Virus record (IMG/VR): IMGVR_UViG_3300020190_000032
Coordinates: 1-64,000 of that record
Direction: 5' to 3' (one strand)
DNA length: 64,000 nt
DNA from: a virus
Both the position numbers and the translations under genes were made by a program. The number at the start of each line of letters is the position of its first letter. The first letter of the stretch is position 1. Below the pieces are notes generated by a model, which worked only from the letters and a program-made list of their open reading frames with translations, searched no databases and was not told the origin of the DNA. This document shows positions 2,577-53,104 of this stretch, piece by piece.

Positions 2577-3656
2577 ATGACTGCTACTATTGCTCGTCAG
2601 CAACCAGTAAGTCAATGGGAGTCATTTTGTAACTGGGTTACGAGTACTTCAAATCGTCTTTATGTGGGATGGTTTGGGGCTTTAATGATTCCTTGCTTGT
2701 TGGCTGCGACCACTTGCTTTATCCTTGCGTTCGTTGCTGCCCCTCCGGTAGACATCGATGGCATTCGTGAGCCCGTTGCTGGTTCGTTGCTTTATGGCAA
2801 CAATATTATCAGTGGTGCTATTGTACCCAGTAGCAATGCTATTGGTTTACATTTTTATCCAATTTGGGAAGCCTCGACGTTAGAAGAGTGGCTTTATAAT
2901 GGTGGTCCATATCAATTGGTTGTATTTCATTTTCTGATTGGTGTTTTTGCGTATGCTGGTCGGGAATGGGAGCTTAGTTACCGATTGGGTATGCGTCCTT
3001 GGATTTTTGTTGCCTATCTCGCACCCGTTGCTGCTGCTGCTGCAGTGTTCCTTGTGTATCCATTTGGGCAGGGTTCCTTCTCTGATGGTATGCCTCTTGG
3101 CATTTCAGGAACATTTAATTTCATGCTTGTTTTCCAGGCGGAACATAATATCCTCATGCACCCCTTCCATATGCTTGGGGTGGCTGGTGTATTTGGGGGT
3201 TCTTTGTTCTCTGCTATGCATGGATCTTTGGTCACAAGTAGTCTTGTTCGGGAAACGAGTGAGGAAGTAAGTCAAAATTATGGTTATAAGTTTGGCCAAG
3301 AGGAAGAAACCTACAACATTGTTGCAGCACATGGCTACTTCGGACGACTTATTTTCCAGTACGCATCCTTTAACAATAGCCGTAGCCTTCATTTTTTTCT
3401 GGCTGCTTGGCCTGTTATTGGTATTTGGTTCACTAGTCTTGGCGTTGCTACGATGGCCTTTAATCTTAATGGGTTTAATTTTAATCAATCTATTATTGAT
3501 GATCAAGGCCGTGTTATCAACACTTGGGCTGATGTCCTCAACAGAGCAAACTTGGGATTTGAAGTCATGCATGAACGCAATGCACATAACTTCCCCCTCG
3601 ACCTCGCTGCCGTTGATGCAACGAATATTGCTCTTATAGCGCCGAGCGTTGGCTGA
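2577..3656 (+). CDS. psbA: Photosystem II D1 protein
   Basis: [52 protein letters not shown]; TyrZ and Mn ligands intact; Glu at position 130; no intron; start MTATIARQ at 2577. Confidence 0.99.
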
Positions 3657-3712: not shown

Positions 3713-4048
3713 ATGGCTTCAATTGAGAGCAGTGTACTTGATCTCGCTTGGGACACAGTACTAGACAGCATTGAATTGCCTTCAACGCAGATGCTTTTGC
3801 GTCAGCAAGGCAAAATTGAGTCAATCAAGGGCAACAGTGTGACAATTTCTGTTACTTCAGAATGGATTACCTTTTTAGAAAGCGGGAAAGAGATATTAGA
3901 ATCAGCGTTTAAAGAAGTATTTTCTTTTAAGGCTGAAATAACTGTTGTCAGGGCTGAGATGGAGCCTTTTAGGCGAGCAAAAGGCCGCATTTCTCGGATT
4001 TTATTAAATAAAAAGTCTAATTATTTACAAAGGTCTGGTCGGGATTGA
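3713..4048 (+). CDS. Stand-alone domain resembling the C-terminal domain of cyanobacterial DNA Pol III gamma/tau (DnaX)
   Basis: WDTVLDSIELPSTQMLLRQQ...VTISVTSEW resembles the picocyanobacterial DnaX segment recalled as WQQILxSLELPSTRMLLSQQ...AVVQVAGNW; TTGACT-18-TATGAT upstream (3657-3686). Confidence 0.65.
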   Translation: MASIESSVLDLAWDTVLDSIELPSTQMLLRQQGKIESIKGNSVTISVTSEWITFLESGKEILESAFKEVFSFKAEITVVRAEMEPFRRAKGRISRILLNKKSNYLQRSGRD

Positions 4049-49617: not shown

Positions 49618-50624
49618 TGTTGAGACTCGATGAAGACGTTGTTCGATTGCAGTTGCTGATTTATAGTGTCAAGTTCTTCTTGCCAACGTTTAATATCTGC
49701 TTCGTTATTTCGATTGCGGGCTTTTTCATATTCAAACGAAATATATTTATAAGTTCTAATAAGATCCTTCTGCTCTTGGTTTAGTGTGTCGCTCTTATTT
49801 GTAGCCTCGGAATCATCTTGTCCAAGTATAAAAAGATTCTCAACATTTTTTAATTTAGTATCATGCGGATTACCATAACCAAAGACCGCGCTAAAATTTC
49901 TACCACTTTGATCAATTTTGTTTGACCAAAAATCGCTTCTTTCTATACCTTTGCACACATATTCTATTAAGTAACAAACATCTGATTGTTTTTGGCCAAG
50001 ATTTTTAAGATGCTTGTTAATAGCTTCAAGTTGCTTCGACGAAAGTGTACGAATTTTAGAATAACTTTCTGGCTTATGAGAATTCCAGCATTGAATAATG
50101 CTTGCAACTGTTTGCGGCCTTACAGGTTCTTCTTTCTTTAACATTTCTTTTTTGCTACTCGAAGCAGGTTGATCTAATTTCTGTTCTACAGGAAGTGCAA
50201 CAACATTAACCGGCAGTTCATCTTGGTCTGTATAACCGAATTCGAACTTCACGGTAGGTATGAATTCGTCAATAATATTTTTATAGGCCGCATAAGGATC
50301 ATGCATTGTCACGGTGCCATTATCTTCAACGGTGACAAAACCTTCTTCAACAAGTTGCGCTAGGCAACTCCTTCGTGCTTTTGTTGCACATCTCATCATC
50401 TTTTCGCAGTCAGCCCAGGAAATATTTTGAGCAGCGGGGTGAACCGCCGCCAGCCAGAGCCAGAGAAGTCGGGCCTGCTTTGTAAGCCGATTATTAAAAA
50501 CTATTTCATTTAAAGGCGCTCTGACGAAACCACCCTGGTAGTCCCAGGGCCTTGCAACTTTGTTCAGGCGGCCAACAGGCAAGGCGTCGACTTCAGGCAT
50601 TGGTTCGACAGGGATCGCAAGCAC
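49614..50624 (-). CDS. Putative replication initiator (N-terminal winged HTH)
   Basis: LTKQARLLWLWL...LAQLVEEGFV; IIQCWN motif; ATGA-coupled to the helicase. Confidence 0.65.
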   Translation of the reverse strand: MLAIPVEPMPEVDALPVGRLNKVARPWDYQGGFVRAPLNEIVFNNRLTKQARLLWLWLAAVHPAAQNISWADCEKMMRCATKARRSCLAQLVEEGFVTVEDNGTVTMHDPYAAYKNIIDEFIPTVKFEFGYTDQDELPVNVVALPVEQKLDQPASSSKKEMLKKEEPVRPQTVASIIQCWNSHKPESYSKIRTLSSKQLEAINKHLKNLGQKQSDVCYLIEYVCKGIERSDFWSNKIDQSGRNFSAVFGYGNPHDTKLKNVENLFILGQDDSEATNKSDTLNQEQKDLIRTYKYISFEYEKARNRNNEADIKRWQEELDTINQQLQSNNVFIESQQ

Positions 50625-50659
50625 CTTAAGGGGGTAGTCAAGGGGGGTTGTTTAAATAC

Positions 50660-50788
50660 AGGTTGTCTTAAGCAACCTTTGGGGTTTCCTCAGGCTAGGT
50701 TTGGGGTATCCTTAGGCAACCTTTAGGGGTTTCCAAAGACCACCCTACCTTTAATATATATATATAAGATTATTTTAGATTTTTTAAT
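50660..50788. repeat. Iteron-like repeats plus AT-rich tract (candidate origin or divergent operator)
   Basis: CTTAAGCAACCTTTGGGGTTTCC (50667-50689), CTTAGGCAACCTTTAGGGGTTTCC (50711-50734), partial TTTGGGGTATCC, and an alternating AT run at 50754-50766. Confidence 0.6.
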
Positions 50789-51067
50789 ATGGGAAAACGG
50801 GGAAGACCAAAAAGGGAAAAACCGCTGACGGACGAGGAACTGGCACAAAGGAGAGCCCGTTACAACTCAACCCGGAAGCAAGCCCGTAGGCTGGCCTCAC
50901 AGCAGCTCAAGGAGGAGCGACGGGAGTGGGAGGAAGTCGGCTGGATTGTCAGAAAAATGAATCGGGAAGCTGGGTTGAGTCAGGAAAGAATTTGGGAGCT
51001 GCTTGGTGGACTGGTAATTCGAAAGAAAATAAAAAAATGGTGCTCTGATGACTTCTCACCTCGTTAG
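50789..51067 (+). CDS. Putative DNA-binding protein (AT-hook plus HTH-like)
   Basis: KRGRPKR N-terminus; GLSQERIWELLG. Confidence 0.6.
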   Translation: MGKRGRPKREKPLTDEELAQRRARYNSTRKQARRLASQQLKEERREWEEVGWIVRKMNREAGLSQERIWELLGGLVIRKKIKKWCSDDFSPR

Positions 51068-51091
51068 CCTGTTTTCACTCACCTGATACCC

Positions 51092-51793
51092 ATGCCTCAG
51101 GAACTCCCTCAACTGGGTGGCATTGCCACCAAAGATCTGGTCGAACATATTGGTAGTGGCAGCTTTAAAGCTTCATATATCAACTGGAGCCGTACTATGG
51201 AATTGCTCCGTAAACATGCTCCAGGTTGGATGGTGGAGCAAATTTTTATGGAAGATGGCAATTCTTTGCATGCCTCTCCGGTCGGCGCAAAAATTTACTT
51301 AAGGTTTCGCCATCTAGACGGAACAGTTACGACCGCTGTTCCTCAGGCCGTGATGGACCATCGAAATAATTCGATCCCTTACGACAAAATTACTTCTCGT
51401 GACGAGACTGATACGCACAGAAGAGGTTCTTGCCTGTTAGCTGCCTACCAGTTCGGATTGGCTTATGAGCTTTGGGCCAAGATGCCCTTGGAGAATGGCT
51501 ATCAAGTTGCTGATGAGCAGACGATTGAAAAAGCTCGTCAGGGAACTGGTGCCACTTCAGACCCCAAGCCAACTGCTGCTAAGCTTGCGGCTACTCCTGC
51601 GGCAGAGGCAACAGAAGCTGACTTCATTAAGGCTTGTATCGCCAAAGGGCTAAATGAAGAGGCAGCAAAGAGTCTTGTTTCCAAGCTTAAAGGTGACTTC
51701 GGCAACGGAATCAAAACCATTGCAGACAAAGATGAAGTATTTGTATCAAAACTTAATGCCAAATTTCAGGCTAGTCCAGGAGAGGATTATTGA
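51092..51793 (+). CDS. Single-strand annealing protein (Sak/Rad52-like)
   Basis: SYINWS, AVMDHRNNSI and RR..CL.A...FGLAYELW motifs. Confidence 0.75.
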   Translation: MPQELPQLGGIATKDLVEHIGSGSFKASYINWSRTMELLRKHAPGWMVEQIFMEDGNSLHASPVGAKIYLRFRHLDGTVTTAVPQAVMDHRNNSIPYDKITSRDETDTHRRGSCLLAAYQFGLAYELWAKMPLENGYQVADEQTIEKARQGTGATSDPKPTAAKLAATPAAEATEADFIKACIAKGLNEEAAKSLVSKLKGDFGNGIKTIADKDEVFVSKLNAKFQASPGEDY

Positions 51794-51866
51794 TATTGAC
51801 GACATAGCCAAAGAGCTTGCGCTGTTTTTTAATGGCGTTATCGTCAAAACTGAAGAAATCTTTTAG
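51786..51866 (+). CDS. Possible peptide resembling the extreme C-terminus of cyanobacterial DnaX (start uncertain)
   Basis: IDDIAKELALFFNGVIV; SD-like AGGAGAGG at 51778-51785; only ATT codons nearby, or the ATG at 51654. Confidence 0.4.
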   Translation: MIDIDDIAKELALFFNGVIVKTEEIF

Positions 51867-51922
51867 GGGGCTTGACTGCCCCCTTTCTATTGATTATCCT
51901 CTACCTGAATCTTTTTCTTTCC

Positions 51923-52717
51923 ATGGCCGCCGACTGCGACACCGTCAAATTTTGGCTTGATGCTGCGGGTCGCTATCCAGTTCTAAAAACCGATCAAGTT
52001 TTATTGCTTGCTAAGCAGATCCAATCAAATTCTCCCGAGAGTCTTGCGTACAAAAAGGCATTACAAAAACTTGTACGACATAATCTTAAATTGATCCCAA
52101 CGGTTGCTCGTCGGGCAATGAGAAATAAATATGGCAAAAACTTTGGTGGCAGTTACACGGAAGATGTATTTCAGTGTGGCGTTGTTGGATTAATGCGAGC
52201 TGCTCAAAAATTCGATCCAACTCGTGGTTATGCTTTTAGCACTTACGCGGTTGGATGGATTTACCAAGCCATGCAACGTGATCTTTATAACAATATGTCC
52301 CCAATCCGTGTCCCTGAAAATACAATTAGAGAATATTACACAATATTTGTTAAGTCAAATGACAACCTTGCCCTTTCTGACGTAGACCCTAAAAAGATGA
52401 TTCGATACATGGATACGGCAAGTGCAATTCGCTGCAGATCATTGGATACCTATAGGCCCTCAGGGCACGCTGAAGATGGGCTTACAGAAGGCATTGAAGT
52501 CGCGTCCGATGACAGTCCTAAGGGTATTGAGCCTATTGACAAAATCATCGACATGTCTGACTGTTCAGACCTAGCCAAGCAAATGGTCTTGGATTACTAC
52601 CAGGATAATTTGACGATGCTTGAAATTGGTGAAAAAAATGGAGTTTCAAGGGGTCGGGTTTCCAAAATGATTCAAGCATGCCTCAAGGATCTCCGCGAGA
52701 AGTTATCGGCGGTATAA
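51923..52717 (+). CDS. RNA polymerase sigma-70 family factor (RpoD/group-2-like)
   Basis: Region 1.2 AGRYPVL, region 2 LVRHNLKLI and GLMRAAQKFDPTRGYAFSTYAVGWIYQAM, region 4 TMLEIGEKNGVSRGRV. Confidence 0.93.
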   Translation: MAADCDTVKFWLDAAGRYPVLKTDQVLLLAKQIQSNSPESLAYKKALQKLVRHNLKLIPTVARRAMRNKYGKNFGGSYTEDVFQCGVVGLMRAAQKFDPTRGYAFSTYAVGWIYQAMQRDLYNNMSPIRVPENTIREYYTIFVKSNDNLALSDVDPKKMIRYMDTASAIRCRSLDTYRPSGHAEDGLTEGIEVASDDSPKGIEPIDKIIDMSDCSDLAKQMVLDYYQDNLTMLEIGEKNGVSRGRVSKMIQACLKDLREKLSAV

Positions 52718-52747: not shown

Positions 52748-53104
52748 ATGGCATCTATCGCCCTCGCCGGCAAAGTGGTCGGCAAAAACGGTGAATCCCC
52801 TGTCTCTCTTAAAGAAGGCAAGGATTATACAATTGCTTCCTTTTCCATCAAGGACAGCACTTATTGCTACTTCAAGAATAAGGATGACAATCCCGGTCAG
52901 TTTTATCGCTGTGAGGTTCTCGGCAAGCAGGCAGCCCTGGCTGCAGAGCGCCTGAAGCGTGGAGACCGAGTTGCTGTGTCTGGTCAGCCTGTCTGGCGTG
53001 AATACAATGGCAACAAGTATCTTGATGTAAAGAATTGCCAGATCACCTTCCTGGAGGATCTTGCAAAAACTGGTACAAGCAGTTCTGGTGAAGACTTGTT
53101 CTGA
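52748..53104 (+). CDS. ssb: Single-stranded DNA-binding protein
   Basis: FYRCEVLGKQA...LKRGDRVAVSG; acidic C-terminal EDLF. Confidence 0.88.
   Translation: MASIALAGKVVGKNGESPVSLKEGKDYTIASFSIKDSTYCYFKNKDDNPGQFYRCEVLGKQAALAAERLKRGDRVAVSGQPVWREYNGNKYLDVKNCQITFLEDLAKTGTSSSGEDLF

Follow-up and report, generated by a model that had tools for sequence, protein, structure and literature searches.

The annealase locus and its hidden peptide

The window analysed here is a 64,000-nucleotide stretch of viral DNA (positions 1 to 64,000 of IMG/VR record IMGVR_UViG_3300020190_000032). Its source record is a virus genome of 84,315 bases that is rated complete, and the presence of psbA at window positions 2577-3656 identifies it as a cyanophage. 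Within the window, the gene for a probable Sak/Rad52-type single-strand annealing protein (annealase) is overlapped at its stop codon by a short conserved peptide in another reading frame. This peptide is the subject of the present analysis. Its reading as a copy of the tail of tau, the dnaX product of the bacterial replicase, is developed below. The features at the locus are as follows.

51092..51793, plus strand: Sak/Rad52-type single-strand annealing protein, 233 amino acids, ending ...SPGEDY before the TGA at 51791-51793
51789..51866, plus strand: conserved hidden peptide IDIDDIAKELALFFNGVIVKTEEIF followed by TAG, in the +1 frame, with the codon overlapping the annealase stop taken as its first
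51756..51866, plus strand: candidate free-standing open reading frame (ORF) of 36 amino acids, MPNFRLVQERIIDIDD..., with an in-frame ATG
51778..51793, plus strand: AGGAGAGG then ATTATTGA, comprising a Shine-Dalgarno-like run, in-frame ATT codons at 51786 and 51789, and the annealase stop
51763..51769, plus strand: AAA TTT C, a candidate +1 slip site inside the open +1 stretch
51865..51900, plus strand: terminator-like hairpin starting from the peptide stop codon, with TTGACT in its loop and TATCCT 17 nucleotides on, ahead of the sigma-factor gene

The peptide had been pointed out in an initial annotation, which is partly confirmed in what it observed and partly supported in how it interpreted the observation. 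The +1 frame over the annealase stop does read ...QERIIDIDDIAKELALFFNGVIVKTEEIF and ends at the TAG at 51864-51866. Also as described, AGGAGAGG lies at 51778-51785, an ATT (51789-51791) overlaps the annealase TGA, and the peptide is followed by a G+C hairpin of 7 pairs and a T-rich tail (51865-51884). The statement that there is no nearby ATG was mistaken: an in-frame ATG at 51756-51758, 35 nucleotides before the stop, opens the 36-residue frame. The core codons of the window peptide are L at 51816-18, F at 51828-30 and G at 51834-36. A six-frame scan of the window with a hidden Markov model (HMM) of the peptide returned the peptide site itself and no second copy.

Conservation and coding signature

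Seventy-nine sources were examined at the annealase stop in all three frames: 74 viral contigs, four annotated phages and the window itself. Three of them end before reaching that stop. The peptide is kept in related phages. A core of the form L/F-x3-F-x-G-x-[ILV] was found just past the annealase stop in 46 of the 79 sources, which were chosen by eye and hold 34 distinct peptides. The other 33 are cut off or have the N-terminal Sak domain alone in common. The peptide reading of phage S-CRES2 resembles that of S-CRES1 and stands outside the count of 46. Scanning with the peptide itself added the loci L093 and L094 (both +1) and L085.

The peptide is a real, conserved and previously unannotated coding element that encodes 16-44 residues. 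Across 12 core codons in the 34 sequences, the mean pairwise difference at codon positions 1, 2 and 3 is 0.485, 0.387 and 0.681, respectively. Third positions are thus the most variable, which is the mark of selection on a plus-strand protein. The F and the G are invariant in all 34 peptides, with 2-14 residues after the G, and the invariant Gly is encoded by GGN, its third base being free. The motif also shifts frame relative to the annealase while its amino-acid sequence is retained. No longer protein with the peptide motif was found when the peptide alignment was compared with 8000 candidates (E <= 10). A search of the ESM Atlas gave no usable match, and a Pfam search of the peptides at E <= 10 gave nothing relevant. 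No description of a tau-like peptide or of a recoded annealase was found in the library of papers searched.

The annealase itself has many homologues and retains an ordinary end. At E <= 1e-10 it has 1608 homologues, many of which have PF06378 on record (53-70% identity), and the S-CRES homologues are annotated as Rad52 recombinases. Against the window annealase, the Pfam model PF06378 (SSAP_Sak) scores 18.6 bits, short of its cut-off of 22.3, with an E-value of 0.0014. Of the 120 best homologues, 119 have a terminal Y, W or F behind acidic residues, and none carries the peptide motif fused in frame. The normal annealase stop is therefore kept, and this speaks against an in-frame fusion.

Reading frame, start codons and slippery sites

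Relative to the annealase, the peptide lies in the +1 frame in 39 of the 46 sources, in the -1 frame in six (L009, L014, L020, L034, L037 and L039) and in frame 0 in one (L008), where it stands behind a single TGA. A suppressor tRNA was considered and set aside, as the window genome has one tRNA-Val only. Start codons are mostly missing. The open frame before the core is devoid of ATG, GTG and TTG in L008, L037, L039 and L043, and five of the six -1 loci have none of these codons ahead of a conserved FPRL block. L093 and L094 have no start either, and their +1 frame opens exactly at an A-run. For many W-class loci the closest start is 74-146 nucleotides upstream. An ATG like that at 51756 is present in only two of the eight Y-class loci found regardless of start, namely the window and L007; L006 and L010 have TTG instead. 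A peptide that keeps no fixed frame and mostly has no start codon is therefore taken as a C-terminal extension of the annealase, and we think that it is probably added to part of the annealase molecules through lineage-specific recoding. Of the expression routes that had been put forward, the relatives favour a frameshift fusion to the annealase; an ATT start or the internal ATG at 51654 is less favoured, and the ATG at 51756 had been missed.

The -1 loci share a slippery sequence. In six of six -1 loci, the last 60 nucleotides contain C_CCA_AAG or A_AAA_AAG in the zero frame where the -1 frame is open; just two of 28 +1 loci have such a heptamer at that place (Fisher p = 2.1e-5, with loci counted as independent and kinship uncorrected). 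We see at least three separate placements of these heptamers. The window annealase has no such -1 heptamer. Atkins and others (PMC5009743) rate both heptamers as highly shift-prone in E. coli. The same review describes a tail chaperone pair for which one haloarchaeal myovirus very likely uses a +1 shift and related viruses a -1 shift. Close known systems treated in it are the dnaX tau/gamma pair (A_AAA_AAG) and gpG/gpGT of phage lambda. There, as proposed here, a low-frequency shift close to the 3' end lets one gene give two products, and the frame entered by the shift lacks its own start. The heptamers A_AAA_AAG and C_CCA_AAG are identical to those in the six -1 loci. Unlike in these systems, the phage shift would add a host-derived docking tail to a protein, most members including the window would need a +1 shift without a recognised +1 site, and the phage product is a predicted one.

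For the +1 class, a candidate in the window is AAA TTT C at 51763..51769, where tRNA-Phe might slip from UUU to UUC. AAA or CAA before TTT C occurs in the window, L006, L007, L010, L043, L085 and L093. The +1 frame of L006, L007, L085 and L093 is open from just 29-38 nucleotides before the stop. The +1 cassette of prfB (the gene for RF2) combines a Shine-Dalgarno-like run with CUU_UGA_C. The window resembles this cassette in having the Shine-Dalgarno-like AGGAGAGG two bases before the last sense codon, a UGA stop and a +1 shift. It differs in that its P-site codon is not CUU but UAU, which re-pairs poorly in +1. Relatives have UGG, UAU, UAC or UUU at this position and no common Shine-Dalgarno-like run. 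The run, which is unconserved in the W-class relatives, need not be a signal because the annealase tail has its conserved P-G-E-D encoded there.

Resemblance to the tau tail

The link to tau rests on the NCBIfam model NF011510 (DNA polymerase III gamma/tau) and on tau of E. coli. A resemblance to the extreme C-terminus of DnaX had been named before any search. When the peptides were then scanned without bias against 18950 NCBIfam models (E up to 10), NF011510 was the only family matched by any of them. Its match register is always model positions 590-626 of 640. E-values are 0.19-0.2 for the window, 0.053 for L007 and 0.014-0.086 for seven of ten further relatives. The scan gave 10 matches (9 distinct peptides) among 29 entries, some peptides being repeated, and one of the 19 alignment members of at least 20 residues matched. 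Of 14 control genomes, only that of Synechococcus elongatus scores above the cut-off of this model. As judged from these comparisons, the apparent likeness to the cyanobacterial tau tail is specific and statistically modest.

E. coli tau ends in ...TLRRFFDAELDEESIRPI, and the E. coli tau-tail system is represented by PDB entries 5fku, 5fkv, 2aya and 8gj0. According to Jergic et al. (2007; PMC1888804), the unstructured E. coli tau tail binds the polymerase subunit alpha, the conserved residues L627, F631, A633 and L635 are important and required for this binding, and extending the tau C-terminus disrupts it. The spacing of these four residues is that of the phage L/F-x3-F-x-G-x-[ILV] core, and both lie near a C-terminus. 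Both segments are short, with an FF pair followed by D or N and about 10 residues past the small residue. In contrast to the E. coli tail, the phage peptide is found outside a clamp-loader protein, out of frame behind an annealase; it has an invariant Gly where E. coli has Ala, and there is no profile-level match between the two. The AAA+ clamp-loader domains are not part of the peptide's gene, which follows the annealase. The peptide would act like a tau tail at most and is not a DnaX.

A second tau-like piece is found in the same phage. This is an ORF of 111 amino acids (3713..4048, plus strand) that matches NF011510 at positions 442-519 (E 5.8e-14) and PF23007 (E 5.8e-07). The initial annotation had suggested that the phage may carry the two parts of the tau C-terminus as separate genes. 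Both pieces do map to one cyanobacterial-type DnaX model in the window. The pairing is not general, since the first piece is present in none of the five complete peptide-bearing relatives, and the peptide therefore works without it. Searches with the 111-residue ORF found no longer proteins and no copy in viral contigs, and BLASTP gave no alignment between it and domain V of E. coli tau.

A phage without its own polymerase

No match to family A, family B or DNA polymerase III (Pol III) alpha polymerases was found in the complete 84-kb genome. The same genome encodes a helicase, a primase, a single-stranded-DNA-binding protein (SSB), a ribonucleotide reductase and ThyX. Among 25 related records, 18 of which bear the peptide (six of those 18 being at least 95% complete), none has PolA, PolB or Pol III alpha. 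Polymerase genes were also considered as a divider between peptide-positive and peptide-negative phages; this fails, as none of the 25 records has one.

The closest isolated relatives of the window are the Synechococcus siphoviruses S-CRES1-3 and S-CBS2. The peptide site sits inside a replication and recombination gene block, in which a DnaB-like helicase and a replication protein (minus strand) are followed by the annealase (51092..51793), a sigma factor and the SSB. Farther along the genome are RusA, a PD-(D/E)XK nuclease, ThyX, a DnaG-type primase and a class II ribonucleotide reductase. The 361 bases from 51600 to 51960 recur with gapless identity in contigs from four of four lake-water sequencing runs, which may belong to the source campaign and are then not independent.

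Side observations on the annealase and its neighbours

Several further features of the annealase family were noted. The SSB of the window ends in ...SSSGEDLF (53080-53104) and the annealase in ...GEDY (51776-51793), so that the ordinary annealase end resembles an SSB-type tail. In S-CRES2 (L002, 1495-2190), an in-frame TAG at codon 137 has led to the recombinase being annotated as two genes; S-CRES1 is intact at that point. A scan of genome contigs with the annealase gave two matches, both on non-cyanobacterial contigs of metagenome-assembled genomes. On L081 (1501-1680), a contig of a metagenome-assembled genome labelled Bacteroidetes, the match is limited to annealase residues 169-228, the C-terminal domain, which may thus occur in another context.

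A second in-frame C_CCA_AAG or A_AAA_AAG was seen near annealase codons 142-156, at the boundary after the Sak domain, in 18 loci (L001, L004, L008, L012, L017-L019, L021-L024, L027, L030, L035, L036, L038, L040 and L044). The -1 frame closes 12-23 codons later, and the window has no such second heptamer. This site may yield a truncated annealase isoform or may merely reflect an Ala-Pro-Lys-rich linker.

Annealase relatives without the peptide have the slot before the SSB filled by an ORF of 58-86 amino acids with its own start. Such ORFs stand directly after the annealase in L045, L051, L052, L054, L055, L057, L077 and L078; from their sequence we take them to be ribbon-helix-helix-like, a reading with no search result behind it. 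Those ending in ...SRFFKG or ...KFFNG were not counted as the peptide, since the peptide HMM gives them scores of no more than about 0-3 bits.

Proposed mechanism

The reading we favour is that the peptide copies the cyanobacterial tau tail and is made as an annealase extension by recoding, to bind host Pol III alpha. We give it a probability of about 0.5. It builds on the conservation, the coding signature, the missing starts, the slippery heptamers, the likeness to the DnaX model and the absence of polymerase genes. From these we infer the frameshift, the fusion product and the binding of alpha. Most ribosomes would end at the conserved acidic-aromatic annealase terminus, and a minority would change frame, by -1 at C_CCA_AAG or A_AAA_AAG in six loci and by +1 near the stop in most loci, the window included. 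UGA readthrough would serve in one locus (L008). The product would be a fraction of annealase molecules with a C-terminal tau-tail-like extension. In the manner of the E. coli tau tail, this extension would bind alpha of the host Pol III and would bring it to annealase-paired DNA ends. Sak proteins form rings. With a tau tail mounted on such an annealase ring, alpha would be delivered to paired 3' ends; a free peptide would instead compete with host tau.

A related strategy is known from phage SPP1, whose gp40 helicase enlists the host replisome by way of DnaX and DnaG (PMC6316719). Like the phage described here, SPP1 is a polymerase-less siphovirus with a DnaB-family helicase that must capture host Pol III via a contact involving tau. 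Unlike SPP1, which binds host tau, the present phage would bring along a tau-tail copy of its own, contacting alpha directly and bypassing host tau. A wider and more tentative proposal, which we hold to be less likely than not, is that throughout a polymerase-less lineage of cyanobacterial siphoviruses a few subunits of each annealase ring carry a stolen copy of the host tau tail. The recoding event would have drifted among -1, +1 and readthrough within this lineage with its product unchanged, and annealing would be wired directly to host Pol III alpha.

Alternative explanations

A number of observations weigh against the favoured reading, and some of them point to a free-standing small protein, which we consider rather unlikely, though most plausible in this window. 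Such a protein would start from the ATG at 51756 (36 amino acids) or from the ATT at 51789, six bases after AGGAG (25 amino acids), and could serve in soluble form as a decoy of the tau tail, or as an adaptor, in competition with host tau for alpha. Both the ATG and the ATT codons after AGGAG are present in the window, L007 shares the ATG, and L006 and L010 have their TTG. The only matches among 1.84 billion protein representatives are nine small called ORFs of 25-76 amino acids; that library consists of called ORFs and is therefore biased toward versions of the peptide with a start codon. Gene callers have likewise made similar ORFs of 36-37 amino acids elsewhere (P0003, P0005, P0007 and P0009). 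Five marine metagenome contigs (L087-L091) hold a free ORF of 45-46 amino acids with the FFNG core, whose own ATG overlaps the stop of a preceding DUF1651 gene (for example L091, 2462-2602). These marine ORFs are among the best matches to the NF011510 tail (E 0.015-0.046), and neither they nor their contig matched isolated phages. Expressing nothing but the C-terminal domain of tau is lethal in E. coli (PMC1888804), so that a decoy could shut off host replication; in the same study the isolated tail peptide bound alpha much more weakly than the whole domain. No Shine-Dalgarno-like run precedes the ATG at 51756. A free protein would also have no usable start in L008, L037, L039, L043, L093, L094 and five of the six -1 loci. 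The recoding step of the favoured reading has its own difficulties: the +1 class has no shift site or stimulator common to all, UAU_UGA and UGG_UGA re-pair poorly in +1 by our base-pair reasoning, and a significant downstream hairpin was seen in one -1 locus only, seven regions folded in the six loci giving z -2.4 for L037 and -0.70 to +0.79 for the rest.

Other observations bear on the tau link. The peptide could be real and unrelated to tau, serving as another docking motif (for the sliding clamp, SSB or a phage helicase) and matching DnaX by chance; we regard this as improbable. The NF011510 E-values are weak singly (0.014-0.2) and their queries are mutually related. Twelve of the 29 entries scanned gave no match (repeats included), and the six -1 class peptides (L009, L034 and L039 among them) and several others have no NCBIfam match. 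At E <= 10 the peptide profile retrieved no tau chain from the PDB, and the peptide HMM found nothing in the last 159 residues of E. coli tau. Against a chance match, DnaX was named in advance and then emerged as the sole family of 18950, with ten matches in a constant C-terminal register, and a second piece of the same DnaX model lies in the same phage. The beta-clamp-binding motif has the consensus QL[SD]LF. The core is without its leading Q, and a clamp-binding motif was rejected for the peptide, as the place four residues ahead of the FF pair holds S, E, G, R or N, never a conserved Q, and the invariant residues are F and G. It is far less probable still that no functional peptide is made and that conservation comes from RNA or DNA signals (a terminator or a sigma promoter) or from a leader ORF controlling the terminator. 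The setting would suit such signals, as the peptide stop codon adjoins the terminator-like hairpin and the promoter-like site TTGACT-17-TATCCT lies in and past its loop. A hairpin with TTGAC in the loop just after the peptide stop is also present in L003, L006, L007, L010, L017 and L035. With TTGAC in the terminator loop and a -10-like hexamer about 17 nucleotides on, the terminator overlaps the sigma-gene promoter, an arrangement seen again in these relatives. The window RNA from 51794 to 51866 also folds better than its shuffles (z -2.8), with a stem in which the GAC GAC (Asp) codons pair with GTC GTC-like (Val) codons of the peptide. However, no consensus structure was recovered for the window hairpin (0 consensus pairs in 10 sequences), a result that counts against the favoured reading as well, and Rfam gave no match at E <= 1 in 50500-52500. 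A purely nucleic-acid signal is further at odds with third codon positions that vary most while residues are kept, and with a motif that changes frame and keeps its amino-acid sequence.

Implications

How polymerase-less phages capture the host replicase is poorly understood. The finding supplies a short, testable candidate for a docking peptide and suggests both its partner, probably DnaE, and its carrier, probably the annealase. It would further be a case of recoding where events of three kinds lead to a single conserved product, and such cases help to find hidden coding regions that are overlooked by gene callers. A peptide that competes with tau for alpha could serve as a probe of cyanobacterial replication. 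If the wider proposal is true, this lineage of siphoviruses would have a coupler of its own for recombination-dependent replication, one by which the host clamp loader is bypassed.

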